Below, piece after piece: positions 6,289-59,622 of a stretch of DNA of 64,000 nt. The stretch comes from Pirellulaceae bacterium. Its GTDB lineage: Bacteria > Planctomycetota > Planctomycetia > Pirellulales > Pirellulaceae. The position numbers were made by a program, and so were the translations under genes. Every line of letters begins with the position of its first letter. Position 1 is the stretch's first letter. The stretch covers positions 53,087 to 117,086 of the forward strand of contig DASYHJ010000003.1 in assembly GCA_035998725.1 (NCBI GenBank), written 5' to 3'. The notes beneath the pieces were generated by a model. The model was not told the DNA's origin, did not search any database, and worked only from the letters and a program-made list of their open reading frames with translations.

Positions 6289-7317
6289 CTACCGCAGGCG
6301 AACCAACTCGTCCTTCGCCAGCCAGTAGATCTCGCCCGCCTCGACCAGCTCCGGCGGAAGGGCGTTGCGAAACGACGTCTGCTTCACCTGTTCGGGCGAC
6401 GCGAGCAGCGTCGCACGCCAGTCCGCCGGCAGCCGGGGTTCCGTCAGATCGAGCGCGTTCCCGATCCGATGCAGCAGATCGGGCCGAACCTTCGCCGCCA
6501 CGTGACGGTCGGCGTCGTTCATCTTGCTGCGAAGCTCGGCGTCGGCATCGGCGAATTGCAGGGCCGCGCGCCAGGCTTTCTGATCCCCCTCCAGGTAGAG
6601 CGCCACCTGAAAGCGTCCGCTCCCTGCCGAGAACGGCGCGGGTTCCTTCTCGAACGGCGCGGCAGGAAAGCCGCTGCTCTCCCGCAACGCCCTTGCCTCG
6701 CAGGCGACGTACAGGACATCGCCTCGCCAGCTCTTCGGCACGCGGACGATCGCCGACAGTTCATGCGATCCCTGAACGGTCGTCGCCGCCGTAGGACGGA
6801 GCTTGAAGTAGACGCCCTGGCCCCGGCGGAGGGTCCCCGCGGCGGTGACGATTTCCTTCGCCGGGATCTCCTGGTACTTCACCGTCTTCGCGTTTTTCTG
6901 CGCCGCCTCGGCGGACCCCGTCGCCTTCACGTTCGCTTCGGCGCCGCTGACGGTCAGTCCGGCTCCCCGCGACGACTCCGCGATCTGCTGAACCTCGACC
7001 GAGCCTGTATAGCGATCCGTCAGAGCCGTCTTCGGCGAGTAGTCGACGATCTGCGCGTGAGGCGTTTCCAGGTGCAACTCCGCCTGGATCTCCGTCAACT
7101 CGCTTTCGTTCCCGGTCAGAAAGACTGACAGCGGAAACCGCACCTCGATCCACCGCTCGTTCGGATTGGCGGCGGCGAACTCCTCCGGCGTTACGTCACG
7201 GCTGCTCGCCAGCGGCGGAAGGTCGAACGAAACCCGCGGCGGCGCTGCGACAGCGACCGCGGCGACAGCGCCAGAAAGCCCCAGAACCAGCGAAACCATC
7301 GCTCCCTGCCGACGCAT
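6289..7317 (-). CDS. hypothetical secreted protein
   Basis: Start set at the ATG giving MRRQGAMVSLVLGLSGAVAAVAVAAPP, a signal peptide. No recognisable domain. Confidence 0.45.
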   Translation of the reverse strand: MRRQGAMVSLVLGLSGAVAAVAVAAPPRVSFDLPPLASSRDVTPEEFAAANPNERWIEVRFPLSVFLTGNESELTEIQAELHLETPHAQIVDYSPKTALTDRYTGSVEVQQIAESSRGAGLTVSGAEANVKATGSAEAAQKNAKTVKYQEIPAKEIVTAAGTLRRGQGVYFKLRPTAATTVQGSHELSAIVRVPKSWRGDVLYVACEARALRESSGFPAAPFEKEPAPFSAGSGRFQVALYLEGDQKAWRAALQFADADAELRSKMNDADRHVAAKVRPDLLHRIGNALDLTEPRLPADWRATLLASPEQVKQTSFRNALPPELVEAGEIYWLAKDELVRLR

Positions 7318-7431
7318 CTTTCCGTCCTCCGTGTCGAAAGCCCTCGCGGTTCCCCGCGACGACTTCTGTACGAAGCGCCCGACCGGAACGTTCGGAAAGG
7401 TCGTCAAGCAGTTGTTCACGGCGACGAGGCC

Positions 7432-8531: not shown

Positions 8532-8736
8532 GTGTGCCAGTGCTGGCTTGCACAGCAGTGCAGCGCCCCGGGAGCGACTTCGCCAGTCCAGACCGTTCGT
8601 CACGACGTCTCGCAATCGTCGAGCGCGTCTTTCGTTGAATGCTCGGACTTCAGTGCCCTGCACTGCTGGGCAAGCCAGCAATGGCACAGCAGCGAGGTCC
8701 GGGCCGCACGGCTGGACAAGCCATTCCATGGCACAC
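8532..8736. repeat. Family-A inverted-repeat element (three arms: 8532-8564, 8658-8689, 8707-8736)
   Basis: Arms GTGTGCCAGTGCTGGCTTGCACAGCAGTGCAG and its reverse complement, plus a third half-site of the CCATGGCTGGCTTGTCCAGCCGTG variant. Intergenic, 3' of treZ. Confidence 0.8.
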
Positions 8737-8769
8737 GAACGTGCCGATGTTCTATGGTCCGTCTGGGAC

Positions 8770-18706: not shown

Positions 18707-18861
18707 TCTCAGGCTGCGATCCTGACATGGCGGATATTTTCCCGAGAAGAGTCGTAACGAATCGCGAGCCGTTCCGCTTCGACAGACAGAGACAGGAACG
18801 AGGCCTTCGAGGACGAAGGCCGCCTGTTCGAAATCCCTCTGCTGGAAAGCGAAACGATCCG

Positions 18862-19245
18862 ATGCTCGCCAACTTCAAGATTCTGACCTTCTCGCTCGTC
18901 GCCGCCTTCGCCCTGATCGCCTCGGCCAGCGCCTACGCCGGCAACGGTCATGGCGGTCACGGACACGGTCACGGTCACAACCATGGCGGTAACGGGCATG
19001 GCCACGGGCACGGGCACGGCCACGGCCACGGGCATGGTCACGGTCATGGACACGGCCATGGTCACAACCACGGCGGTCATGGGCACGGCCATCACCACCA
19101 CGGACATGGCCACTTCCATATCCAACCCTTCCCGTACCAGCAGTTCCCGCACTTTCACAACGGTCATTTTCACAACGGACACTTCCACAACGGCCACTTC
19201 CATGGCCGCAACGGGGGCGGCTTCCAGTTCCACTTCAGCAAGTAA
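18862..19245 (+). CDS. Secreted histidine/glycine-rich repeat protein (putative metal-binding)
   Basis: Signal peptide MLANFKILTFSLVAAFALIASASAYA, then a (HG)n run of about 35 dipeptides, HHHHGHGH, and four FHNGH repeats. The underlying DNA is a CACGGC-type microsatellite. Confidence 0.6.
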   Translation: MLANFKILTFSLVAAFALIASASAYAGNGHGGHGHGHGHNHGGNGHGHGHGHGHGHGHGHGHGHGHGHNHGGHGHGHHHHGHGHFHIQPFPYQQFPHFHNGHFHNGHFHNGHFHGRNGGGFQFHFSK

Positions 19246-30541: not shown

Positions 30542-30660
30542 AACGAAGAGGGGCGGGGTCGGGAGACTCGCATCCAGAGCAGATAGATGGAGGCCTGCGT
30601 CCCTCGCGGAGAGATATCGGCAACGGCTTTCGCAGCCGGCCCTTCAAGGAGGAGAATCGC

Positions 30661-33555: not shown

Positions 33556-35844
33556 ATGATCTCGACCCACGTCCTCGGTTTTCCCCGCATCGGAGCCTTC
33601 CGCGAACACAAGCGGGCGCTCGAACGCTACTGGAAGGGAGAGTCTTCGCTCGCCGAACTCGCCGACGTCCAGCGACAGATCCGCGCCTTCGGTTGGCAGG
33701 CGCAGAAGGATGCGGGCCTCGACCTTCTCACGGTCGGCGATTTCGCCGCCTACGATCACGTCCTCACGCTCGCCCGGCGGCTGGGCGCCGTCCCCCGCCG
33801 ATTCCGGACGACGGACGTGACCGAGGACGTCGAGTTCCTGATGGCGCGGGGAAAGGCGCCGACGGGTCAGCCGACGCACGCGCTTGAGATGACCAAGTGG
33901 TTCGACACGAACTACCACTATCTGCGCCCCGAGTTCGACCGCTCGACCACGTTCTCCGCCCTCGACCGCTCGCTCGACTCGGAGGTTCTCGAAGCGAAGG
34001 CGTTCGACCGATCGCTGAAGGTCGTGCTGGTCGGGCCGGTGACGCTCCTCGCGCTCGGGCGCTGGCTCGAGAGCGAAGGCAGCCCGCTGGAGCTGCTCCC
34101 CGCTCTGCTGGAGGCGTATGCCGCCACGCTCGCCCGGCTGAAGTCGCTCGGCGTCGCCTGCGTGCAACTCGACGAGCCGATCCTGGCGACGGACCTGAGC
34201 GACGAATGGATCGACGCCGTCCGCACGGCGTATGGCCGCCTCGGCGACGCCGGTCCGCCGATTCTGCTGGCGACTTACTTCGCCCGTACGAACGATCGCA
34301 GACTGCTCTTCCGCGAACTGCCTGTGGCGGGGATCCATCTCGATCTCTGTCGCGACGCGGAGGCTTGGGAATGGGCGGCAGAGGCGATCCGCGACGACCA
34401 GTACCTTTCTGCCGGCGTCGTCGATGGGCGTTCGATCTGGCGAACCGCGCTGGACGAGACGCATCGTCGGCTGAAGCCGCTGTACGCGAAGCTCGGGGAT
34501 CGGCTGAAGTTGGCGACGTCATGCTCGCTCTTGCATGTCCCGTACGACGCCGCGGTGGAGACGGAAGGTCCTCCGGCGCTGCGAGGGCGGCTGGCGTTCG
34601 CCCTGCAGAAGCTGGACGAGCTTCGCCTGCTCAAGCGGTCGCTTGAGCTCGGCGAAGCCGCCGTGCGTACGGAGCTCTCCGAAGAACGCGAATCGCGAGC
34701 CGCCTGGCAGCGCGAACCGGGCGTTCTGACCGCTTCCGTGCGGCGTCGTGCGGCGGCGGTCGATCGGGCGATGACGGAACGGGCAGAACCGTATCCTTCT
34801 CGCGCAGAGCAGCAGGCGGGGCGATTGAACCTGCCGCCGCTGCCGACGACGACGATCGGGTCCTTTCCGCAGACGGACGCTATTCGCGCCGCGAGAAAGC
34901 GATTCATCGACGGGCAGCTTTCGCCGGAGGGTTACGAGCGGGCGATCGAGTCCGAAATCGCCTTCGCCATCCGCAAGCAGGAAGAGTACGGTCTGGACGT
35001 GCTCGTGCATGGCGAGCCGGAACGCAACGACATGGTCGAGTACTTCGCCGAAGGCCTCGGCGGATTCGCCTTCACCCGGTTCGGCTGGGTCCAGTCGTAC
35101 GGCAGCCGCTGCGTGAAGCCGCCGATCATCTGGGGCGACGTCGACCGCCCGCAGGATCTGACCGTTCGCTGGGCGAAGTACGCACAGTCGCTGACGAACG
35201 CTCCGGTGAAGGGGATGCTGACCGGCCCCGTCACGATCCTGCAATGGTCGTTCGTGCGGGACGATCTTTCGCGAGCGGACGTCGCGAGGCAGATCGCGCT
35301 GGCTCTGCGTGACGAGGTCGTTGCCCTGGAAGCCGCCGGCATCGCGATCGTGCAGGTCGACGAGCCGGCGTTTCGCGAGGGGCTGCCCCTGCGGCAGGAG
35401 GATCGAGCCAGCTACTTGGCCTGGGCGGCGGAAAGCTTCCGCCTGGCGACGGCGGGCGTGCGATCCGAAACGCAGATTCACACCCACATGTGCTACAGCG
35501 ACTTCGGCGACATCCGCGACGGGATCGTGGCGCTCGACGCCGACGTGATCACGCTCGAAGCGGCTCGATCGCATGACGAGTTGGCCTGCGAGTTCGGCTC
35601 CGCCGGAGGATATCCGCGCGAGATCGGACCAGGCATGTACGACATTCATTCGCCGAACGCTCCGACGCTGGAAGAGGTCGAGCAACGGATCGACAGCGCC
35701 CTCTCCGCGTTTCCAATCGAGCGGCTCTGGATCAACCCCGACTGTGGCCTGAAGACCCGCACCTGGAGCGAGGTCGACGCGGCCCTGCCCGTTCTGACAC
35801 TAGCGGCGAAGCAGGCGAGAGAGCGGCTTGCCACGACAGCGTGA
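33556..35844 (+). CDS. metE: Cobalamin-independent methionine synthase
   Basis: MISTHVLGFPRIG start, duplicated UroD-like halves, C-terminal 'HTHMCYSDF...WINPDCGLKTR' Zn site. Confidence 0.95.
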   Translation: MISTHVLGFPRIGAFREHKRALERYWKGESSLAELADVQRQIRAFGWQAQKDAGLDLLTVGDFAAYDHVLTLARRLGAVPRRFRTTDVTEDVEFLMARGKAPTGQPTHALEMTKWFDTNYHYLRPEFDRSTTFSALDRSLDSEVLEAKAFDRSLKVVLVGPVTLLALGRWLESEGSPLELLPALLEAYAATLARLKSLGVACVQLDEPILATDLSDEWIDAVRTAYGRLGDAGPPILLATYFARTNDRRLLFRELPVAGIHLDLCRDAEAWEWAAEAIRDDQYLSAGVVDGRSIWRTALDETHRRLKPLYAKLGDRLKLATSCSLLHVPYDAAVETEGPPALRGRLAFALQKLDELRLLKRSLELGEAAVRTELSEERESRAAWQREPGVLTASVRRRAAAVDRAMTERAEPYPSRAEQQAGRLNLPPLPTTTIGSFPQTDAIRAARKRFIDGQLSPEGYERAIESEIAFAIRKQEEYGLDVLVHGEPERNDMVEYFAEGLGGFAFTRFGWVQSYGSRCVKPPIIWGDVDRPQDLTVRWAKYAQSLTNAPVKGMLTGPVTILQWSFVRDDLSRADVARQIALALRDEVVALEAAGIAIVQVDEPAFREGLPLRQEDRASYLAWAAESFRLATAGVRSETQIHTHMCYSDFGDIRDGIVALDADVITLEAARSHDELACEFGSAGGYPREIGPGMYDIHSPNAPTLEEVEQRIDSALSAFPIERLWINPDCGLKTRTWSEVDAALPVLTLAAKQARERLATTA

Positions 35845-35868
35845 AAGCTTGCCTGTCCGTGTGCCATG

Positions 35869-36010
35869 GCTGGCTTGTCCAGCCGTGCAGGACCCAGGTA
35901 CCGGGGACGCCAGTCGGTTCGACTCGGTCGGTTCGAGATCGGTTGAGAGACGGCCGGTAGAGGAGCGTGTCCCCGTATTCCGCACGGCTGGACAAGCCAG
36001 CCATGGCACA
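35869..36010. repeat. Family-A inverted-repeat element
   Basis: Arms GTGTGCCATGGCTGGCTTGTCCAGCCGTGCAG (35869-35900) and reverse complement (35982-36010), with an 81-nt spacer. Starts 25 nt after the metE stop. Confidence 0.85.
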
Positions 36011-36272
36011 CGGGGATGATTCTGATGCGCCGCGATCGTACGGTGCGGCGGGTCGTCGCAGGCGGGCGATCAGGCATTAAGCGGGACGCGCCGGGAACGG
36101 TTGAAATAGCGGCGATCGATGGGCACGCCCTCCACAGGCGCCGTCCGTCGTCGCCTTGGGTTGCGTGACCTCGACGTGCGGGCGTCGGAGCCTGAAGACC
36201 TGGCTTCGACGCTTCCGCCCGTCGAGGTTAGAATCACTTGGCGATCTGCCGCTTTCGCCGCGAGCTGTTCCG

Positions 36273-37100
36273 ATGACCGCCGACAAGCTTCGCCCGATCC
36301 GGGTCGGAGCCGTTTCCTATCTCAACAGCAAGCCGCTGCTCTACGGACTGCGGGAAGAGGCGCCGTTCGCGACGCTGACGCTCGATCTGCCGAGCCGGCT
36401 GGCGACGGGGCTGGCGGAAGAGCGTTACGACGTGGCGCTCATTCCGGCGATCGAATACTTCCGCCAGCCCGGGTGCGAGATCGTCTCGGACGCCTGCATC
36501 GCCGCCCACGGGCCGGTCTGGAGCGTGAAGCTCTTGTTCCGGACGGAGCCGGAGAAGGTTCGGACGCTGGCGCTCGACGAGGGCTCGCGGACCAGCGCGA
36601 CGCTCGCGCGGATCCTGCTCCATCGCCGCTGCGGCATCGAGCCGAGCATGCGACCGCTGCCGATCGACGCCGATTTCGGCGCCGCCGACGCCGACGCGGT
36701 CCTGGTGATCGGCGATCGGGCGATGCACGTTCGCGACGAGGATTATGCCTGCGTCTGGGATCTGGCCCAGGCGTGGGGCGAAGAGCGGAATCTGCCGTTC
36801 GTGTTCGCGATGTGGGTCGCTCGCCCCGGCGTCGATCGCGAAGCGCTGGCCGAACTCGAAGCCGCGCTCGGACGCTGTCGCGACGCGGGCCTTTCGCAAG
36901 CCGAGCAGATCGCCGCCGAGGAAGGTCCCCCGCTCGGCCTGTCGCCGCAGGCGGCGCTCGATTACTTTCGCAAGCATCTGCATTTCCGCCTTGGTCGCCC
37001 GGAACGTGCGGGGCTGGCCGCTTTCTACGAGCAGGCCGTCGCCCTGAACCTGGCGCCGGCGGGACGAGAGGTCCGGTTTCATGATTGCCTGCAGCGTTGA
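36273..37100 (+). CDS. mqnA: Chorismate dehydratase / futalosine-pathway MqnA-MqnD family protein
   Basis: 'IRVGAVSYLNSKPL' signature of the VitK2_biosynth family. Trimmed to the ATG at 36273. Confidence 0.7.
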   Translation: MTADKLRPIRVGAVSYLNSKPLLYGLREEAPFATLTLDLPSRLATGLAEERYDVALIPAIEYFRQPGCEIVSDACIAAHGPVWSVKLLFRTEPEKVRTLALDEGSRTSATLARILLHRRCGIEPSMRPLPIDADFGAADADAVLVIGDRAMHVRDEDYACVWDLAQAWGEERNLPFVFAMWVARPGVDREALAELEAALGRCRDAGLSQAEQIAAEEGPPLGLSPQAALDYFRKHLHFRLGRPERAGLAAFYEQAVALNLAPAGREVRFHDCLQR

Positions 37101-38247
37101 CGCCATTCTCGACAAAGCCGTCGCCGGCGAGCGCCTGACGCCCGCGGAGGGGGTCGCGCTTCTGGAGTCGCACGATCTGGCGAAGATCGGGCGCGCGGCC
37201 GACGCCGTGACGCGGCGCCTCCATCCGGAGGACTACCGCACCTACAACATCGACCGGAACGTCAACTACACGAACGTCTGCACGGCGGTCTGCGACTTCT
37301 GCGCTTTCTATCGCACGCCGAAGTCGGAGGAGGGGTACGTCCTCCCGCGCGAGGTCCTGCTCAAGAAGGTGGAAGAGACCGTCGCGCTCGGCGGCGATCA
37401 AATCCTGATGCAGGGGGGCCTCCACCCCAAGTACAAGCTCGACTGGTACGAGGAACTGCTGCGCGACATCAAGCAGGCCTTCCCGCAGGTCAACGTCCAC
37501 GGCTTCAGCCCGCCCGAGATCTACCACTTCACGAAGGTCAACAGGCTCCCGCTGCGGGAGATCCTGACTCGCCTGAAGGAGGCGGGCCTGGGCAGTCTGC
37601 CGGGCGGCGGGGCGGAGATCCTGGTCGATCGGGTGCGCGCGGCGATCACCCGCGGCAAGGTGATGACCGACGACTGGCTCGACGTGATGCGGGTCTGGCA
37701 CGAACTGGGCGGGAAGAGCAGCGCCACGATGATGTTCGGCCACGTCGAAACGCTGGCCGAGCGGATCGAGCACCTCGATCGCGTGCGACAGCTTCAGGAC
37801 GAGACGGGCGGCTTCACCGCGTTCATCTGCTGGACGTTCCAGCCGGACCACACGGAGATGGCCCACATCGCGGCCGCCGGCAGCTTCGAATACCTGAAGA
37901 CGCAGGCGGTCAGCCGGCTCTACCTGGACAACGTGCCGAACATCCAGTCGAGCTGGGTCACGCAGGGTCAGAAGATCGGCCAGCTCGCGATGCAGTTCGG
38001 CGCCAACGACATGGGCTCGCTGATGATCGAGGAGAACGTCGTCGCCGAAGCGGGCACGGTGCATCTTCTCACGCTGGAGCAGATCCGCGGCGCGATCGAG
38101 GAACTCGGCTACGTGCCGCGGCAGCGCAACGTCTTCTACGAACTGCTCTCCCTGGAGCGGGAGCGCTTCGCGATCGAGGCGAACCGCGATCGGGCCGCGA
38201 CGCTCAACCGGACCAAGGGCGCCGACCTGGTCGACCTGCAGGCGTAG
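37081..38247 (+). CDS. Radical-SAM menaquinone biosynthesis enzyme (MqnE/MqnC family)
   Basis: 'CTAVCDFC' CxxxCxxC cluster. Overlaps mqnA by 20 nt. MqnC and MqnE cannot be distinguished without alignment. Confidence 0.7.
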   Translation: MIACSVDAILDKAVAGERLTPAEGVALLESHDLAKIGRAADAVTRRLHPEDYRTYNIDRNVNYTNVCTAVCDFCAFYRTPKSEEGYVLPREVLLKKVEETVALGGDQILMQGGLHPKYKLDWYEELLRDIKQAFPQVNVHGFSPPEIYHFTKVNRLPLREILTRLKEAGLGSLPGGGAEILVDRVRAAITRGKVMTDDWLDVMRVWHELGGKSSATMMFGHVETLAERIEHLDRVRQLQDETGGFTAFICWTFQPDHTEMAHIAAAGSFEYLKTQAVSRLYLDNVPNIQSSWVTQGQKIGQLAMQFGANDMGSLMIEENVVAEAGTVHLLTLEQIRGAIEELGYVPRQRNVFYELLSLERERFAIEANRDRAATLNRTKGADLVDLQA

Positions 38248-38257
38248 AACCGCTCCG

Positions 38258-38416
38258 GTGTGCCACGGATGGCTTGTCCATCCGTGCCGTCAGCGGAGTC
38301 CGAAGACCTGGTTCGTCCAGTCGAGACGAAGTGAAGTTCCGCTTCGTGATGAAGCCCTCGGCCATCGACGCGACCAACGGGACTCTGCACGGCTGGGCAA
38401 GCCAGCCGTGGCACAC
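38258..38416. repeat. Family-A inverted-repeat element
   Basis: Arms at 38258-38288 and 38385-38416 with an inner small hairpin (ACGAAG...CTTCGT). Lies between the convergent mqnE/C and fliM genes. Confidence 0.85.
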
Positions 38417-38448
38417 GAGGAATACTCCGCGGACGGAAGAATCGAGGG

Positions 38449-39474
38449 TCAGCCTTTCTTCGGCGCCTCGACGGGGCTCACGACCTTCTCGATCTGGATC
38501 GCCTTCTTCCCCTTGAGCTGGCCGGGACTGGCGAGGAACTTCGGGGCATCGGAGATCGAGACGGTCAGCGGCTGACGGACGTCGTGCTCCGTCAGGATGA
38601 CGTCCCCGACGCGAAGGCCGATCAGTTCCTCGACGCTGATCTTTCCCGGGGCGAAGCGGACGACCAGTTCCAGCTCCGAGCGGTCGAGACTCCGCGAGAC
38701 GGTTTCTTTCGTCTTGTCGGTGACGTTGGTGCGGCCGTAGCCGGCCCAGGTCTTCTCGGCCAGGTTGGAGCCGATGCGCTCGATCGAGTTGTACGGGATG
38801 CAGAGGTTGATCATCCCGCGAACGTCGTTCACGCAGGCTTCGAACGTCACGAGGATGACGACTTCGCTCGGCGGAACGACCTGCACCAGTTGCGGGTTCG
38901 ACTCGATCTTCTCGACGGCCAGTTCCAGCGAGACGAGCGTTTCCCACGCCCGCTTCAGCTCGCGCAGGAAGAGCTGCACGATTCGCTCGACGATCTTCAG
39001 TTCGATCTCGGTCAACGCCCGCCTTTGAATCATGCCCGATTCCTTGCCGCCGCCCAGCAGGCGGTCGATCATCGGAAAGAGCACGACCGGATCGAGGTCG
39101 AGAATCAGATTCCCCGGCAGCGGGTCCGCCTTGAGCAGAACGAAGCAGGTCGGGTTCTCGAGACTGAAGACGAACTCGCCGTAGGTGAGCTGGTCGACGC
39201 TGACGAGTTTCAGATCGACGACGCTGCGCAGCACGTTCGACAGGGAGACGCTGAAGTTGCGTCCGAGCCCGTCGTGCAGCGTCTGGAGCGCCCGCATCTG
39301 CTCTTTGCCGACGCGTTCCGGGCGTTTGAAGTCGTACGGAACGATCTTCTCGCGCCCGCGACGCTCTTCGTTGGCGACGTGCTTCACGGCAGGGCGCTGC
39401 GCATCGTCCGCGTTCGGATCGAGCGAGCTGAGCAGGTTCTCGACTTCGTCGTGCGAAAGCACTTCGTCGCTCAT
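38449..39474 (-). CDS. fliM: Flagellar motor switch protein FliM
   Basis: N-terminal 'MSDEVLSHDEVENLL' CheY-P-binding motif, 'YDFKRPERVGKEQ', and a C-terminal FliN-like SpoA domain. Trimmed to the ATG at 39472-39474. Confidence 0.85.
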   Translation of the reverse strand: MSDEVLSHDEVENLLSSLDPNADDAQRPAVKHVANEERRGREKIVPYDFKRPERVGKEQMRALQTLHDGLGRNFSVSLSNVLRSVVDLKLVSVDQLTYGEFVFSLENPTCFVLLKADPLPGNLILDLDPVVLFPMIDRLLGGGKESGMIQRRALTEIELKIVERIVQLFLRELKRAWETLVSLELAVEKIESNPQLVQVVPPSEVVILVTFEACVNDVRGMINLCIPYNSIERIGSNLAEKTWAGYGRTNVTDKTKETVSRSLDRSELELVVRFAPGKISVEELIGLRVGDVILTEHDVRQPLTVSISDAPKFLASPGQLKGKKAIQIEKVVSPVEAPKKG

Positions 39475-39540
39475 CGGTCCCTCCCTGGACGTCAAGAGCT
39501 TCTGGCCCGCGTCAAAATGAACGGCGGTCGTAAGCTTCAC

Positions 39541-39695
39541 GTGTGCCATGCCCACATCTCCCAAGGAAGAGTGGGCATGCGAGCCGGAGTCAGATGTCAG
39601 CTTCCGATTTCACCCCTGACGTCGTGAATGCCGATCGCCGTAGCCGAGTCAGTCCCGCATGCCCAAGCTGCTGACGCGACGTGGGCATGGCACAC
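39541..39695. repeat. Variant inverted-repeat element (GTGTGCCATGCCCAC arms with nested TGGGCATGCG/CGCATGCCCA repeats)
   Basis: Arms at 39541-39555 and 39681-39695, sharing the GTGTGCCATG terminus with Family A. Nested second IR. Lies between proA and fliM. Confidence 0.65.
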
Positions 39696-39715
39696 AATCG
39701 AGTGCCTTCGCGGTT

Positions 39716-40987
39716 CTACTGTCGGATCTGGCCGTCTCCGACGACCACGTACTTGTAGCTGGTCAGTTCCTCGAGGCCGCAGGGGCCGCGAGCGTGGAAC
39801 TTGTCGGTGCTGATCCCGATCTCCGCGCCCATGCCGAACTCGCCGCCGTCGTGGAATCGCGTGCTGGCGTTGATCATGACTGCCGCGGAGTCGACGCCTG
39901 CCGCGAACTTCTGCGACGCCGTCAGGTCGCGCGTGACGATGGCGTCCGTGTGGTGCGAACCGTAGCGTTCGATCCAGTCGATCGCCTGCTCGAGCGAATC
40001 GACTACCTTGCAGGAGATCGCTGGCCCGAGGTACTCCGTCGACCAGTCTTCCTCGGTCGCCGCGATGGCGTCCCTGATTGCCGCACGCGTCGCTTCGTCG
40101 CCGCGGATCTGGATGCCGCGCTCGATTAGCTCCTTGCCGATCTTCGGCAGGAACGTCTTTGCGACGTCGCGGTGAATCAGAATCGACTCGCACGCGTTGC
40201 AGACGCCCATGCGACTGCACTTGGAGTTCACCACGATCTTCGCCGCCAGTTCGAGATCGGCGGCGGAGTCGACGTAGACGTGGCAGTTGCCGTCGAAGTG
40301 CTTGATGACGGGCATCGTCGCTTCGTCGGCGACGCGACGGATCAGGCCGGCGCCGCCGCGAGGAATGGCGACGTCGATGCAGTCGTTCATCCTCAGCAGA
40401 TGGCCCACGATGTCGCGGTCGGACGACTCCACGATCTGGACGGCGTCGGTCGGCAGATCGTGCCGAACGAGTTCCTCCCGCAGGACGGCGACGATCGCGG
40501 CGCTGCTGTTCGCCGCTTCCTTTCCGCCGCGAAGGATCACGGCGTTGCCGCTCTTCACGCAGATCGCCGCGGCGTCGGCGGTGACATTCGGGCGCGACTC
40601 GTAGATGAAGAAGACCGTGCCGAGCGGCACCCGGATCTTCGAGATCGACAGTCCGTTGGGACGCCGCGTATGGTCGATAACGCGGCCGATGGGATCGGGG
40701 AGCGAGGCGATCTGCTCCAGGCCCGCCGCGATGGCGTCGACTCGCTTCCTGTCGAGCCGCAGGCGATCCTTCTCCGCGTCGGTCAAACCGAACCCGTCGG
40801 CGTTGTCCAGATCCCGGGCATTGGCTTCCAGAATCGAGGCGGTCGCTTCGCGAAGCGCGGCAGCCGAGGATCTGAGCCAGGCGTCGCGAAGTTCGCCCGA
40901 CGCCGTGGCCAGACCCTTCGACGCGGCACGGGCTCGCTCGGCGAGTCGTCGGCTGTAGGTTTTCGTGTCGGTTTCGACGACGGCCAT
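39716..40987 (-). CDS. proA: Gamma-glutamyl phosphate reductase
   Basis: Aldehyde dehydrogenase fold with the ProA catalytic Cys region 'MGVCNACESILIH'. An alternative TTG start lies at 41006-41008. Confidence 0.9.
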   Translation of the reverse strand: MAVVETDTKTYSRRLAERARAASKGLATASGELRDAWLRSSAAALREATASILEANARDLDNADGFGLTDAEKDRLRLDRKRVDAIAAGLEQIASLPDPIGRVIDHTRRPNGLSISKIRVPLGTVFFIYESRPNVTADAAAICVKSGNAVILRGGKEAANSSAAIVAVLREELVRHDLPTDAVQIVESSDRDIVGHLLRMNDCIDVAIPRGGAGLIRRVADEATMPVIKHFDGNCHVYVDSAADLELAAKIVVNSKCSRMGVCNACESILIHRDVAKTFLPKIGKELIERGIQIRGDEATRAAIRDAIAATEEDWSTEYLGPAISCKVVDSLEQAIDWIERYGSHHTDAIVTRDLTASQKFAAGVDSAAVMINASTRFHDGGEFGMGAEIGISTDKFHARGPCGLEELTSYKYVVVGDGQIRQ

Positions 40988-41107
40988 GCGAGCAGAACTT
41001 TCGGTCAACGTGCGGCAGGCACGGAACTTCCGCGCTTTCGCAGTATGGAAAAGGAGGCAAAGCGGGTCAATGCCGTTCAGCCGGCAGCCCCTTCCTCCCT
41101 CAGCGCC

Positions 41108-41980
41108 TTAAGTAGCTTGACCGCCGAAGGTTACAGCGCCCAATCCGCCGCAGGCCGCGAACACGGCCAGTGCGTCGCGCGTGGCCTGGACATCATGCAC
41201 GCGAAGAATCGGAATGCCCGCCGCCGCCAGGGCCAGGGACGCTCCGAGCGTGCCGGCGGTTCGGTCGCGTTCCTTGCTTGCCATCGCCTTCGCGATGAAG
41301 CCCTTCCGGGAATGGCCCACCAGAATCGGCGCCGGAAGGTCGAGAAATCGCCGGGCCGAGCGGACCAGTTCGAAATTGTGCTCGTGCGTCTTGCCGAACC
41401 CGATGCCGGGGTCGAGGCAGATCGTCTCCGCCGGCACGCCTGCCGCGACGAGCGAGGCGAACCGGGCCTGCAGATAGCCGTGGATCTCCGCGACTACGTC
41501 GTGGTACCGCGGGTCGTCCTGCATCGTCTGGGGCGTGCCGCGCATGTGCATCGCGCAGACGCCGGGGCGGTACTCGCGGACGACGTCCAGCATCTGCGGA
41601 TCGCCTTCGAGCCCCGTAACGTCGTTCACGATCTCCGCGCCTGCGTCGAGAGCCGCCCTCGCGACGCAGGACTTATAGGTATCGATAGAGACAGGAACGG
41701 TGGTCCTTCGGCAGACCTCGGCGACGACGCGTCCGACACGCCTCCACTCTTCCGCCTGCTCGACCGGCGTAGCGTAGGGGCGGGTGCTCTCGCCGCCGAT
41801 ATCGAGGATGTCCGCCCCCTCGTCCGCCAGCCGAAGCGCCTGCTCGATCGCCCGCTCCGCGTCGAAGAACGCGTTCCCGTCGGAGAACGAATCGGGCGTG
41901 ACGTTCACGATTCCCATCAGCCGCGGAAGGCCGACAAGATCGAGCTTCCTTGTTCGCAGCGTCCAGGATCGGGAGGGCAT
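41108..41980 (-). CDS. folP: Dihydropteroate synthase
   Basis: 'MGIVNVTPDSFSDGN' pterin-binding signature. Confidence 0.9.
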   Translation of the reverse strand: MPSRSWTLRTRKLDLVGLPRLMGIVNVTPDSFSDGNAFFDAERAIEQALRLADEGADILDIGGESTRPYATPVEQAEEWRRVGRVVAEVCRRTTVPVSIDTYKSCVARAALDAGAEIVNDVTGLEGDPQMLDVVREYRPGVCAMHMRGTPQTMQDDPRYHDVVAEIHGYLQARFASLVAAGVPAETICLDPGIGFGKTHEHNFELVRSARRFLDLPAPILVGHSRKGFIAKAMASKERDRTAGTLGASLALAAAGIPILRVHDVQATRDALAVFAACGGLGAVTFGGQAT

Positions 41981-42002
41981 AAGGACGTGCGGCTAGACGC
42001 GG

Positions 42003-42161
42003 GTGTGCCACTGCTGGCTTGCCCAGCAGTGCAGCGGGCGGAGTTCGACTTTCTATCTCGTCAGGTCGTCACGAAGGTTCGCTCTACTTCGTGAGGGACC
42101 GCCTCGAATGGGACGCGATCTCAGGGGCTCTGCACTGCTGGGCACGCCAGCAGTGGCACAC
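42003..42161. repeat. Family-A inverted-repeat element
   Basis: Arms GTGTGCCACTGCTGGCTTGCCCAGCAGTGCAG (42003-42034) and reverse complement (42130-42161), with inner hairpin CACGAAG...CTTCGTG. Confidence 0.85.
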
Positions 42162-42179
42162 AGAGATAAAACGATCGAC

Positions 42180-44021
42180 CTACCGCTTCAGATCGTACTC
42201 TTCCAGCTTGCGATAGAGCGTCGCGCGGCTGATGCCGAGCAGCTTGGCGGCCTGGGGAACTCCGCCGCCGGTGCGAGAGAGCGCCCGCTCGATGAGCTTC
42301 TTCTCCCAGCGATCGATGCGGAGATCGTCCGCCGACTCCTCGGTCGACGCGTCGCGCAGGCCCAGATCCTCCGGGTCGATCGTGCTGCTGTCGGCCATGA
42401 CGACCGCGCTGTCGATCACGTTGCGAAGCTGCCGAACGTTGCCTGGCCAGGAGTAGGCGATCAATCGGTCCCGCGCGGCCGGGGCCAGCTTCAACTGCAG
42501 GCGACCGTGCTGGAGTTTGAAGTGCTCGAAGAAGTGATCGACGAGCAGGCCCACGTCGGTCCCGCGATCTCGCAGCGGCGGAATCTGCAGTTCGAAAACG
42601 CTCAGGCGATAGTAGAGATCCTCGCGGAACTTCTTCTCGCGAACGAACTCCCGCAAATCGCGATTCGTTGCGGCCAGCACGCGCACGTCGACGGAGACCT
42701 CCTTTACGCCGCCGACTGGAAGGAAGGCGTGCCCTTCCAGGATGCGAAGGAGCTTGGCCTGACCCTCGAGCGTCAGTTCGCCGACCTCATCCAGGAAGAG
42801 CGTCCCGGAGTCGGCCTGGCGGAAGTAACCGGGATGGTCGGCGTCGGCGCTGGTGAAAGAGCCTTTCTTATGGCCGAAGAGCTGGCTCTCCATCAGCTCC
42901 GCCGGAATAGCGGCGCAGTTGACCGAGAGCATCGGTCGATCGGCCCGCGGACTCATTCGGTGGAGCGCCCGGGCGACCAGTTCCTTCCCGGAGCCGCTTT
43001 CGCCGCGGATCAGGACGCAGCCGCTCGCCCTCGCGATTCGTTTGATCTTGTCGCGAAGCTCGATCATCGGCTTGCTTTCGCCGATCAGTTCGCCCTGGTC
43101 GGCGTTCTTCGCCACCAGCCGCGCGTTCTCTTCCCGCAGTCGGGCCTGTTCCCGTGCGCGAACCAGCGCGATCACGAGCGCGTTGGCGACGAGGATCGCG
43201 TAATCGAAGTCGGCGTCTTCGAAGCGACCGCCCGCTCGGTAGAGATGGATCGCGCCGAGCGTTTCGTCGGAGTAGATCAGCGGAACGCAGATCGCCTCGT
43301 CGAACGCCGCCAGATCGCGCCCCGCGGAACTGGAGTCCCGGCAGTCGATGCGGATGGCATTCTGTTCCCGAATGACTTTCTGAGTCAACTCCTTCGACAG
43401 AACCGCGCGGTGGGCGTCCTGCTCCGGAATAGCCAGCTTCGGCTTCAGGCGCCCTTCGTCGACCCACAGAAAGCCGATCACCGTCGCCTTCGTGCGTTCC
43501 TTCAAATCTTCCAGCGAGACCCGAACGACGTCGTCGGGGTTGGAATTGCCGAGCAGGCGGACGCTGAGATCGCTGAAGCGGATAAAGTCCGTGTCGGGAC
43601 CGCGGCCCTTCACGCCGACCGGCTTTCGCAGCGAGCCGGCGCCGCGTTTGACGTCGACCTTCGCTCCGAAGTTGAGGGTCTGCGTGCCGGAAAGATCGTC
43701 GTCATCGTCCAGCGAACGAACGCTCTGGCCCGCTCCGTTGAAGCGCATCGTGGTCGAGCCGATGCGGATCTTTCCCCCTTCGCGGAGCGGCGCCTGCTCG
43801 ATCTTTCGCCCGTCCAGAAACGTGCCGTTGCGACTGCTGGAGTCGCGCACGAACCACTCGTCGCCGGCACGGTAGATCGCGGCGTGGACGCGCGAGGCGA
43901 GCGGATCGGTCAGCACGATCCGGCACTCCGTGCCGCGTCCGATGAGGTTTTCGGACTCTTCGTTGAGCGGGATCGGCCGACCGGCGCGGTCCCCGTCCAG
44001 GATGCTCAGAATGGCGTTCAA
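42180..44021 (-). CDS. Sigma-54-dependent transcriptional activator with two N-terminal FHA domains and a GAF domain
   Basis: FHA motifs 'IGRGTECRIVLTDPLASRVHAAIY' and 'RNGTFLDGRKI'. AAA+ 'GESGSGKELVARALH', 'GAFT'-like ESQLFGH. C-terminal Fis-type HTH. Apparent TTG start. Confidence 0.85.
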   Translation of the reverse strand: MNAILSILDGDRAGRPIPLNEESENLIGRGTECRIVLTDPLASRVHAAIYRAGDEWFVRDSSSRNGTFLDGRKIEQAPLREGGKIRIGSTTMRFNGAGQSVRSLDDDDDLSGTQTLNFGAKVDVKRGAGSLRKPVGVKGRGPDTDFIRFSDLSVRLLGNSNPDDVVRVSLEDLKERTKATVIGFLWVDEGRLKPKLAIPEQDAHRAVLSKELTQKVIREQNAIRIDCRDSSSAGRDLAAFDEAICVPLIYSDETLGAIHLYRAGGRFEDADFDYAILVANALVIALVRAREQARLREENARLVAKNADQGELIGESKPMIELRDKIKRIARASGCVLIRGESGSGKELVARALHRMSPRADRPMLSVNCAAIPAELMESQLFGHKKGSFTSADADHPGYFRQADSGTLFLDEVGELTLEGQAKLLRILEGHAFLPVGGVKEVSVDVRVLAATNRDLREFVREKKFREDLYYRLSVFELQIPPLRDRGTDVGLLVDHFFEHFKLQHGRLQLKLAPAARDRLIAYSWPGNVRQLRNVIDSAVVMADSSTIDPEDLGLRDASTEESADDLRIDRWEKKLIERALSRTGGGVPQAAKLLGISRATLYRKLEEYDLKR

Positions 44022-44262
44022 GCGGCGTCCGTCATGCGCGGGCGACGAGACAGGAAGATGACCTGCACGTAGTGTACCGCATGCCGCCGATCGTCAGCAG
44101 GCATGCCGGGGGGTCTCGTCCGACTCCCGCGTCGCTCGTTTCGCCGCTCTCGCCGGGGGAAAAGCTAGGCTAGTCGGCATTGCCGGCCCTACCGGCGCCC
44201 GCGACAATCCAGACCTTCTCCGCCCGCTCCGCCGCGCCCGCTCCGCTCATCGCCATCACCGA

Positions 44263-45321
44263 GTGCCCATGCGCATCCGCCGAATCCGAATCCTGCATCC
44301 TGAGAACGCCAGCAGGACGCCCGCGTGGAAACGCTCCAAGGGCCACGTCGTGGTGGGCCTCTGGACGGACGAGGGGCACATCGCGCTCGGCGAAGGGGGC
44401 GGAGGGGAAAAGGGGATCAACTTCCTCGTCGAGGAGATCTTCCCCGATCTGCTCCGTCGGGAGTTCGCCGACATCGACGCCGGATTCGCCCGCGTCGGCG
44501 AGCTTCAGAAACAGCATCGGGAACCGCATCAGATCATGGCGCTCAGCGCGCTCGATCTCGCGCTGTGGGATCTTCGCGGCAAGACGCTGGGTCAGCCCGT
44601 CGCGCGACTGCTCGACCCGAAGGTCGATCTGTCGGTCCCTCTGCCGGTCTATCGCGTCGCAGCGTCCCGCGACGACGCGCTGGTCGCGCTCGACGCTGGT
44701 TTCGCCGGCGTCAAGGTCCGCCAGATCGAGGCCGATCGCCAGCCTCGGCCGGAGAAGATCACGCGGCTCTTTTCGCAGGTGCGGGAGGTCGTCGGGCCGG
44801 ACTATCCGCTGATGCTCGACGCGTTCGGCTACTGGACCGTGGAGCAGGCGATGGACGTCGCGCTGGCGTCGTCGGATCTCCGCCCCTACTGGCTGGAAGA
44901 GCCCTTTCCGAACTACGACTTCGACAGCTATCGCCGCCTGGTCAACGTCTGTCCGATCCCGATCGCGGGAGGCGAGCACGAAACGAGCGTGGAGCAGTTC
45001 GACAAGATCATCGACGAGCGGATTCACAGCATCCTTCAGCCGGACGTCTCGTGGTGCGGCGGGATGACCGCGCTGCAGGCTCTGTACGCCAAGGCGAGCG
45101 ATCGTTACCTGCGAGTCTGCCCCCATCGCGGCGGCGAGCCCTACGCTCTTCATGCGATCGCCGCGTTCGACGGAATGCCGCTGGTCGACGAGCCGCGATA
45201 CTGGACCGACTGCTACGGCGACGCGCCTCAGCCTCAGAACGGCGTCCTCCGTCTCTCCGATGCGCCCGGCTTCGGCATCTCCGTGCCCGAGGAACGCTGG
45301 GAGCGAGAGTTCGTCGCGTAA
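44263..45321 (+). CDS. Enolase-superfamily enzyme (mandelate racemase / muconate lactonizing family)
   Basis: MR/MLE N- and C-terminal barrel motifs, 'LDLALWDLRGK', metal ligands D...E...E/D. Confidence 0.65.
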   Translation: MPMRIRRIRILHPENASRTPAWKRSKGHVVVGLWTDEGHIALGEGGGGEKGINFLVEEIFPDLLRREFADIDAGFARVGELQKQHREPHQIMALSALDLALWDLRGKTLGQPVARLLDPKVDLSVPLPVYRVAASRDDALVALDAGFAGVKVRQIEADRQPRPEKITRLFSQVREVVGPDYPLMLDAFGYWTVEQAMDVALASSDLRPYWLEEPFPNYDFDSYRRLVNVCPIPIAGGEHETSVEQFDKIIDERIHSILQPDVSWCGGMTALQALYAKASDRYLRVCPHRGGEPYALHAIAAFDGMPLVDEPRYWTDCYGDAPQPQNGVLRLSDAPGFGISVPEERWEREFVA

Positions 45322-45385
45322 GCCTTTCGCCTTCCCGCCGCTCGACGCGATCGGGATCGAATGCTTGCGAAGCGAACAGGCGCTG

Positions 45386-45535
45386 GTGTGCCATGGCTGG
45401 CTTGTCCAGCCGTGCGGACTCGCGGAGTCGGCCGCAAGTTACGCATACGCTCCCCGTCAGACAACGATCGCGGGGGGACCATCTCATCGGATGCAGACGG
45501 GAGAGGCACGGCCGGGCAGGCCGGCCAGGGCACAC
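45386..45535. repeat. Family-A inverted-repeat element (right arm degenerate)
   Basis: Left arm at 45386-45416, exact. Right arm at 45507-45535, CACGGCCGGGCAGGCCGGCCAGGGCACAC, degenerate. Confidence 0.7.
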
Positions 45536-45635
45536 GGAGACCCTTCGCGATCGTCTGCCAGGGGGTTCAGGCTGAACGCGACGGGGCTAGACTGCCGGAG
45601 ACTTCCGACCGTCTCCTTTTGTTCGCCGTCTCGTC

Positions 45636-47717
<2,082 letters not shown>

Positions 47718-55100: not shown

Positions 55101-55137
55101 GCGCTGGGCGAGGGTCTCCTGATCCCGCCCGTTTTCG
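55101..55137 (+). terminator. Family-B hairpin followed by T-tract (intrinsic terminator)
   Basis: GCGCTGGGCGAGGGTCTCCTGATCCCGCCCGTTTTCGG, 29 nt after the T4CP stop. Confidence 0.6.
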
Positions 55138-57290: not shown

Positions 57291-57313
57291 TCGTTCGGCC
57301 GGCTTTGATCGTC

Positions 57314-57419
57314 TCCTTCGGGTGGCACTGGCTCCGCCAGCGCTGTCCCCGCGTCACATTCGATCGAATAGTCGACTCTCTCCTGCTTCGACACTGGCGG
57401 AGCCAGTGCAACCCGAAGG
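57314..57419. repeat. Inverted repeat CCTTCGGGTGGCACTGGCTCCGCCAGCG / reverse complement, with a 48-nt spacer
   Basis: Arms at 57314-57342 and 57391-57419. Weak resemblance to the Family-A arm core (GCCACTG..GCT). Confidence 0.6.
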
Positions 57420-57606
57420 AGAGGATGATCGCGAGCGACGCATCGACGGTCTGCTCCCATCGCGTTTCTCTTCTCTTTCTAGCGAACCGGCGGGTCGACC
57501 GGCTGTCCATGTGACGTCGGCGTCGCGGGCCAGCGGCGTGCGTCGCTCGCGAGAGCGATCCGCGAACGCACGTTCCGGACATGGGTTCTGACGAAGCGGC
57601 GTCGAC

Positions 57607-57683
57607 GCTCGGTTAGCTCAACTGGTTAGAGCGCCAGATGAAGACTCTGGTTGTTGCGGGTTCGATTCCCGTACCGACGACCC
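57607..57683 (+). tRNA. tRNA-like sequence with irregular acceptor stem and anticodon loop (possibly Phe-GAA-like pseudo-tRNA)
   Basis: Canonical D-arm TAGCTCAACTGGTTAGAGC and T-arm GCGGGTTCGATTCCCGT. The acceptor halves GCTCGGT/ACCGACG mispair at positions 1-2. The anticodon loop TGAAGAC has G at position 33. Confidence 0.35.
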
Positions 57684-59501: not shown

Positions 59502-59622
59502 GGGGCGCTGGGGCGCGGGTCTCCTGACCCCGCCCCTTCTCGAATCCCCTCCGCGCGGGGCGCAGGTCTCCTGACCTCGCCCCTCAGTGGCAGGCGCGTG
59601 CGGGTCTCCTGACCCGCCCCTC
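59502..59622. repeat. Family-B tandem hairpin array (3 units of GGGCGCGGGTCTCCTGACCCCGCCCCT)
   Basis: Units at 59502-59537, 59551-59584, and 59590-59622. The same unit occurs at 38-187 (4 units) and 55101-55131. Confidence 0.8.

Follow-up and report, generated by a model that had tools for sequence, protein, structure and literature searches.

Escherichia coli contains repetitive extragenic palindromic (REP) sequences and bacterial interspersed mosaic elements (BIMEs), short extragenic palindromes with an unpaired 5´ motif that often occur as inverted pairs, and the gene for the HUH/Y1 protein of this system, TnpA-REP, is itself bracketed by REPs in a so-called REPtron (PDB 4ER8; PMC3333891, PMC8266576). 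In Pseudomonas fluorescens SBW25 and its relatives the inverted REP doublet (REPIN), which forms a long hairpin, is the replicative unit; the REPINs are extragenic and flank a typically single-copy gene for a REP-associated tyrosine transposase (RAYT) (PMC3116915, PMC5581495). The members of the GTAG superfamily, including the perfectly palindromic SMAG repeats of Stenotrophomonas and GTAG-20 and GTAG-21 of Rhodopirellula baltica, have a tag, a covarying stem of 6–13 bp and a short loop, and favour "head-head" dimers with the tags outside, located 20–100 bp apart; with R. baltica, REP/RAYT systems have already been reported in a planctomycete (PMC3733652). Here we analysed a stretch of 64,000 nucleotides from a Pirellulaceae bacterium (contig DASYHJ010000003.1; termed the window in the following), in which arms of about 32 nucleotides recur in inverted pairs close to stop codons. 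These elements are very probably REPs arranged as REPINs and serviced by one clade of RAYT proteins (TnpA-REP, HUH/Y1, IS200-related). Every architectural feature found here is shared by the REP/BIME-TnpA-REP, REPIN-RAYT and GTAG/CGTC-tagged families (PMC3333891, PMC8266576, PMC3116915, PMC3733652). The elements do not represent a new kind of element; they differ from these families in the GTGC tag next to the stem, the perfect 9-bp helix with its conserved loop and the phylum-wide conservation of tag and loop.

The window contains 11 canonical arms and one variant pair, and thus 13 arms in 64 kb. A search with the arm consensus GTGTGCCAYKGCTGGCTTGYCCAGCMGTGCAG, allowing up to three mismatches, gave nine matches in the window and none in 100 shuffles of it. 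A covariance model of the arm, run unfiltered against the whole window, returned exactly 11 arms with E values from 9e-8 to 7e-4 and found the variant pair at 39541/39695 only weakly (E 1.4–1.5), and a repeat search of the window recovered the same five direct and inverted families. The canonical arms form five inverted doublets, the GTGTGCC ends of which all point outward, plus one extra degenerate arm. Each canonical doublet folds into one long hairpin closed by an arm-arm helix of about 30 bp, with top-strand energies of -85 to -107 kcal/mol (z -5 to -10). The initial annotation had described inverted arms of this length at the same sites, separated by spacers of 80–100 nucleotides, and both statements stood up, with 90–99 nucleotides measured between the 30-nucleotide cores. 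Some of its coordinates had to be corrected: the element that it flagged starts at 35859 instead of 35869, which was 10 nucleotides too far in, and the inner spacer hairpin CACGAAG...CTTCGTG of the doublet 42003-42161 is located at 42070-42093 and not at 42079-42105.

Each arm contains an internal hairpin, which had been overlooked in the initial annotation. The window arms have the layout GTGTGC / CAYKGCTGG / CTTGY / CCAGCMGTG / C, that is tag, stem, loop, stem and 3´ base. The general REP unit of the family consists of the unpaired 5´ tag G[G/T]GTGC, a 9-bp stem (CAC-N-G-NN-GG / CC-NN-C-N-GTG) and the loop CTTGY, and one extra conserved C directly 3´ of the stem results in the conserved 3´ end GTGC. 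Covariation of the paired positions, proposed earlier as a check for structure, is clearly present. Among the window copies the K:M pair of the stem is either G:C or T:A and therefore compensated, and double-sided changes affect the three stem pairs unconstrained by the search pattern in 15, 13 and 13 of 39 distinct arms. Stem positions are paired in 95.7% of cases in these arms, compared with 84% in shuffled controls and 25–53% with the partner slid, and the non-stem positions that had been left free (A8, C9, T17, Y20) are almost constant. Tag positions that were fixed by the search pattern are not independent evidence, whereas the arms flanking RAYT genes (see below) were found via the protein and are independent. 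The arm hairpin is under selection, and a palindrome with a conserved unpaired 5´ tag, present singly or in inverted pairs, is the anatomy of a REP and not of a transposon terminal repeat. Two other readings of the palindrome were ruled out: a double-stranded operator, since the stem covaries, and a sigma-54 promoter at TGGCAC, since no TTGC is found at the spacing needed.

To place the window copies in a wider context, a collection with one genome per species was scanned with a pattern in which the variable stem positions were left free. At least 112 eight-kb blocks matched, derived from at least 72 species-level assemblies (counted by hand from the record titles); 65 of the 72 listed assemblies are labelled Planctomycetota. 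The following labels and arrangements refer to the matches listed. Phycisphaerae, Planctomycetia, Pirellulales, Thermoguttaceae, Gimesia and Brocadiaceae are all represented, with many Pirellulales assemblies among them. With a simple arm scanner, 204 arms were detected in these blocks, compared with zero after shuffling of the sequence. Tag-outward inverted doublets prevail among the paired arms (62, compared with 3 tag-inward and 4 direct pairs), single arms are about as common as doublets (76 versus 69), and the doublet spacing spans 5–210 nucleotides. The usual spacer in other genomes is 13–31 nucleotides long; the 90–100-nucleotide class of the window is a minority form that also occurs in locus L055. 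The window corresponds to the 3´ part of the 117-kb JGI metagenome contig Ga0370534_00145, and one of its proteins is identical to a protein deposited for a Pirellulaceae MAG (metagenome-assembled genome). The gene calls of the window's own contig include the PSCyt2, PSD1 and DUF1501 families, which are typical of planctomycetes.

An all-against-all BLAST of the ORFs (open reading frames) from the 112 listed loci revealed no recurrent neighbour gene family, and the one apparent cluster of neighbour genes beside the arms consisted of unrelated glycosyltransferases. The arm thus represents a dispersed repeat rather than the cis-regulator of a particular operon. As in SBW25, some doublets share their spacers: those of the 38258 and 42003 doublets are homologous (z 11.9), the 8532 spacer is weakly related to the 42003 spacer (z 4.6), and two doublets in L055 have a nearly identical spacer (z 27.8), showing that at least some doublets were copied as whole units. 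Between genomes, no spacer homology was found beyond these within-genome pairs. In the remaining doublets the arms are still conserved, but the spacers are no longer recognisably related.

A candidate enzyme was sought among small ORFs bracketed by arms in the listed blocks. In a MAG of Phycisphaera, an ORF for a 191-aa protein (L110:6751-7323(-)) lies between arms at 6698 (+) and at 7338 (-) and 7424 (-). This protein matches Pfam Y1_Tnp (26.6 bits, cut-off 23) and the NCBIfam model NF047646 "REP-associated tyrosine transposase" (89.8 bits, cut-off 80) and fails the IS200 model (22.8 bits, cut-off 55). A profile built from 19 homologues gave a match to E. coli TnpA-REP (PDB 4ER8, E 2.6e-8), a remote similarity that was seen with the family profile only and covers two short stretches. 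The catalytic motifs are kept: the HUH histidines H66 and H68 (in this clade the motif reads EHVH), the WQ motif and Tyr146 in YxHxNP are invariant in the 19 homologues. A copy with 55% identity adjoins arms in the complete chromosome of a Phycisphaerales MAG (L057). The protein family has thousands of members of about 191 aa, annotated merely as "transposase", and nearly all of its protein clusters were found on no more than two contigs, the pattern expected of a single-copy gene. A second protein search for homologues returned only labels of Planctomycetota and Phycisphaerales MAGs.

For the association test, 80 metagenome loci were fetched with the RAYT protein alone and then scanned for arms with a scanner that gives one match in 808 kb of shuffled sequence. 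In 58 of the 80 loci an arm (+) is located upstream and an inverted arm (-) downstream of the gene, both within 300 nucleotides (median 41 nucleotides each). In a further 10 loci only one flank carries an arm, and several of these loci are cut by contig ends. Another 10 loci lack a canonical arm; their REP shares the GTGCCACTGG...CCAGTGC frame with it but has a stem or loop of different length. In the remaining two, neither form was found. Counting the stem and loop variants, the association holds for about 78 of the 80 loci. The label "REP-like" of the initial annotation is therefore justified by a RAYT flanked by these very arms (L110, L057 and the 58 loci), and the RAYT search it had suggested was successful at the level of the family, in other genomes. 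Beside RAYT genes the tag is mostly GGGTGC (119 of 126 arms in L115-L194), while the window arms carry GTGTGCC or CTGTGCC; perfect GTGTGCC-tagged arms, the form of the window, are present on both sides of the RAYT gene in L176 and L194. Sub-lineages of the REP-RAYT pair may be distinguishable by the second base of the tag. In P0016, a homologue of 332 aa, the RAYT is fused to a PIN domain (PF01850/PF13470).

The arms flanking RAYT genes are oriented with the tag outward like those of the dispersed doublets, so that a doublet corresponds to a RAYT locus from which the gene is missing, in agreement with the REPIN concept (PMC3116915; PMC5581495). By analogy with E. coli TnpA-REP, hairpin and tag would be bound and cut by the RAYT in single-stranded DNA. 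With the RAYT gene between two outward-facing REPs and the REPIN offering the same geometry without a gene, the enzyme could excise and reinsert the REPIN in trans. Copies would be retained at sites where they cause little damage, chiefly downstream of genes, and once transcribed the hairpins may secondarily affect mRNA 3´ ends.

Gene positions in the window were taken from the JGI gene calls for the contig. All window copies are intergenic, with 10–64 nucleotides between the element end and the nearest stop codon, which agrees with the 10–65 nucleotides given in the initial annotation; one neighbour listed there as enolase is a gene of the MR_MLE family. The gaps in the window are 200–430 nucleotides long and the elements 150–200 nucleotides, so that a distance of up to 65 nucleotides from a stop codon is nearly forced. 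The preference for gene 3´ ends claimed on this basis thus does not follow from the window, but it does hold elsewhere. Using crude gene calls based on G+C at the third codon position (GC3), 86 of the 123 units placed in the loci listed fall into the 21% of sequence called intergenic (p = 1e-31). Among about 145 units from other genomes, 41 lie in co-directional, 36 in convergent and 9 in divergent gaps, with a background of 341, 100 and 88, respectively (convergent to divergent 36:9 versus 100:88, p = 2e-4), and in co-directional gaps the median distance is 54 nucleotides from the upstream stop and 135 nucleotides from the downstream start. The 3´-end bias across the family is real and is the classical distribution of REPs; it is compatible with an RNA effect at the 3´ end and equally with selection against promoter disruption.

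It might therefore be argued that the elements are primarily functional RNAs, forming structures in the 3´ untranslated region (3´ UTR) for termination, for protection against 3´ exonucleases or as small RNAs (sRNAs), and that multiplication by a transposase is incidental or absent. E. coli REPs do stabilise upstream mRNA and modulate termination. The smaller distance of the units from the upstream stop, compared with the downstream start, throughout the family, the very stable folds and the phylum-wide conservation of tag and loop, which suggests constraint, would fit such a role. However, terminator-like sites in the region 35000–46500 are as frequent as in shuffled sequence (8 versus 7.6), none coincides with an arm hairpin and no U-tract follows the hairpins, so that the arms do not qualify as intrinsic (Rho-independent) terminators. 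A search of the whole window against Rfam at the gathering threshold returned only tRNA, and for the flagged element at E<=10 only a spurious miRNA match far below threshold. Single arms occur on either strand with respect to the upstream gene (12 on the same strand, 6 on the opposite strand, among the matches listed), and the neighbouring genes are unrelated. Mismatches show no strand preference (48 G-T versus 35 A-C, p = 0.19, with a scanner biased towards G-T), and the arm is associated most strongly with the RAYT gene and not with any transcript class. An RNA function is not needed to explain the data, and we consider it improbable that it is the primary one.

A second possibility concerns the type of transposon. 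Palindrome-associated transposable elements (PATEs) are MITE-like relics (MITE being short for miniature inverted-repeat transposable element), and the arms might be such derivatives of active IS200/IS605 insertion sequences (ISs), thus ends of a selfish multi-copy IS instead of REPs of a domesticated single-copy RAYT. The flanked protein is of the Y1/HUH type, its Pfam match is described as "Transposase IS200 like", and IS200/IS605 ends likewise have sub-terminal hairpins. Against this, the protein passes the RAYT equivalog and fails that of IS200, it carries the YxHxNP and WQ motifs in their RAYT-type form, and it is flanked on both sides by one and the same REP, inverted, and not by distinct left and right ends. 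In addition, no tnpB gene accompanies it, and the distribution of its protein clusters over contigs fits a single-copy gene. Such an origin is very improbable. That the elements are classical MITEs as labelled initially, deletion derivatives of an IS with a DDE transposase and with the 30-nucleotide arms as terminal inverted repeats, is scarcely credible despite the inverted-repeat architecture of 150–160 nucleotides with TG...CA ends, since direct target-site duplications were found around none of the five window doublets, singles are as frequent as doublets, an internally covarying hairpin has no reason in a double-stranded terminal repeat, the spacing is variable and the sole recurrently bracketed gene encodes the Y1/HUH protein and not a DDE transposase.

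The assignment to a REP-RAYT system has to be weighed against several observations. The stem-adjacent GTGC fits neither GTAG nor its variants GYAG, GYRG, GTRG, GTMG and GTGG (PMC3733652). Searches of the window and of the 10 kb lying upstream revealed no RAYT (tblastn; no PF01797 gene call), and these adjacent 10 kb (L195) contain no further arm copy. The copies are clustered, five of the six elements (the variant counted) being located between 35.8 and 45.5 kb and one in the remaining 54 kb. Most window spacers have no detectable homology, and copying of whole units was seen for some copies only. The gene calls in the other loci rest on the crude GC3 heuristic, and 37 units lie inside ORFs called in this way. 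Because the pairing of arm and RAYT was observed in other genomes, we infer that this Pirellulaceae genome, too, encodes a cognate RAYT, which may still act on the window copies.

Compared to the described systems, the REPs of this clade show several peculiarities. In E. coli the tag is GTAG and the palindrome is imperfect and bulged, whereas here the tag is G[G/T]GTGC, the 9-bp helix is perfect with a 5-nucleotide loop, and the hosts are Planctomycetota. In contrast to SBW25, the spacers are mostly short in the other genomes and long in the window, singles are as common as doublets, and the conservation of tag and loop extends over classes within one phylum; the SBW25 type is restricted to a genus or species complex. 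The peptides encoded by REP insertions in R. baltica (e.g. SRIRQEF, RSVVLHR; PMC3733652) differ from VCHWRLVRQC, the translation of the arm described here. The arm sequence is absent from the supplements of PMC3733652 and was not found in the searchable literature with sequence and keyword searches. In a survey of Y1 proteins, Planctomycetes are mentioned solely in connection with another group, "class 3", which has a CnGA foot (PMC6006769).

REPs are normally specific for a species or genus. Here, tag and loop are near-identical in at least 65 planctomycete assemblies from several classes, together with the same RAYT clade. They constitute a natural series for studying substrate recognition by RAYTs, and the series bears on whether the persistence of REPIN-RAYT systems is due to vertical descent, as in the "ancient replicator" idea of Bertels and Rainey, or to transfer within a phylum. 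It is conceivable, though doubtful, that all this represents a single REP-RAYT lineage that predates the separation of Phycisphaerae and Planctomycetia and has been passed on vertically ever since. In this case the recognition determinants (tag, closing CAC/GTG pairs and CTTGY loop) would have remained unchanged, whereas the RAYT would have diverged to about 55% identity and compensatory changes would have altered the mid-stem positions. The partnership would then be conserved more deeply than any other REPIN-RAYT pair described, and it would argue for a function at the host level, for instance at mRNA 3´ ends, that keeps the system throughout the phylum. Two RAYT homologues with about 57% identity (P0067, P0078) are labelled Thermodesulfobacteriota, which suggests transfer outside the phylum or mis-binning.

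For genome annotation, the hairpins explain many "structured" intergenic regions in Planctomycetota and some mis-called gene starts. REP arms appear in translated form in annotated or apparent proteins, as GCHWRLARQC or VCHWRLVRQC (P0003; spurious ORFs in L005, L036 and L106). In P0003 from Phycisphaera sp., the deposited start codon is located inside the upstream REP, so that the N-terminal extension is an annotation artefact.

The features of the window are compiled in the following table.

Table. REP arms, doublets and further hairpin repeats in the window. Energies are in kcal/mol; distances refer to the nearest stop codon.
Feature	Position	Arms	Arm search and stem	Spacer, repeat and fold	Distance and neighbouring genes
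Doublet	8532-8689	8532-8561 (+), 8660-8689 (-)	arm model 31.5 and 40.9 bits	98-nt spacer; single long hairpin, -85, z -6.5	33 nt (8532 group); between alpha-amylase stop (8770) and start of next gene (8487)
Third, degenerate solo arm	8704-8738	8704-8738 (-), 35-nt model match	32.2 bits, E 5.5e-4; left stem half TGGAATGG, consensus TGGCTGG	tandem with arm 8660-8689	
Flagged doublet, tags outward	35859-36011	35859-35888 (+), 35982-36011 (-)	0 and 1 consensus mismatches; arm model 52 bits; 35859-35890 is GTGTGCCATGGCTGGCTTGTCCAGCCGTGCAG, reverse complement ends at 36011	93-nt spacer; inverted repeat I1, 45-nt arms, 87% complementary; -107, z -10	14 nt; metE (stop at 35844), element starts after stop
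Doublet	38258-38416	38258-38287 (+), 38387-38416 (-)	consensus and arm model; left arm with compensated stem change GGATGG/CCATCC	supported by fold	10 and 32 nt; convergent MqnC-like radical SAM gene and FliM gene
Variant doublet	39541-39695		weak arm-model matches; tag GTGTGCC; stem ATGCCCAC/GTGGGCAT, 15-nt loops	-70 to -81 (-70 on top strand)	20 nt; aldehyde dehydrogenase
Doublet	42003-42161	42003-42032 (+), 42132-42161 (-)	consensus and arm model	99-nt spacer; -104, z -10	18 nt; FHA-sigma54 activator; element begins 22 nt upstream of folP-like start
Doublet	45386-45535	45386-45415 (+), 45506-45535 (-)	arm model 50.8 and 43.0 bits; right arm degenerate yet compensated, GGCCGG/CCGGCC		64 nt after stop; MR_MLE (mandelate racemase/muconate lactonizing enzyme family)
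Inverted repeat I11	57308-57426	33-nt arms containing GGGTGGCACTGGCTCCGCCAG	resembles RAYT-flanking REP TGTGCCACTGGCTCCGCCAGTGC in L187	94% complementary	
GGGCG(N)GGGTCTCCTGACCCCGCCC copies	106-130, 153-177, 55106-55130, 59511-59535, 59558-59582				
Weaker GGGCG(N)GGGTCTCCTGACCCCGCCC copies	30544-30580 (minus), 59600-59620				

The variant doublet at 39541-39695 shares the end GTGTGCCAT with the canonical arms and differs in the stem. The same stem combined with the canonical loop GCTTGCC was found in a Pirellulales MAG (L010), which makes the variant a member of a sister stem sub-family. The inverted repeat at 57308-57426, located about 180 nucleotides upstream of a tRNA (57607-57680), is not matched by the arm covariance model; judged by its sequence, it is probably a seventh, divergent doublet, tentatively a short-stem relative in the same REP superfamily.

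A second hairpin repeat family, GGGCG(N)GGGTCTCCTGACCCCGCCC, is distinct from the REP arm and has five matches with up to three mismatches in the window, where none is expected. Its copies often lie head-to-tail with a period of 47 nucleotides in intergenic gaps; they probably represent a further REP-like family, the stem of which is bulged. In addition, the window contains an ORF (18727-19245 (+)) with a hydrophobic, signal-peptide-like stretch at about residues 50–70, followed by long (Gly-His)n and HFHNG repeats, which account for the tandem DNA repeats at 18954-19091; from its sequence the product looks like a histidine-rich secreted protein that probably binds metal.

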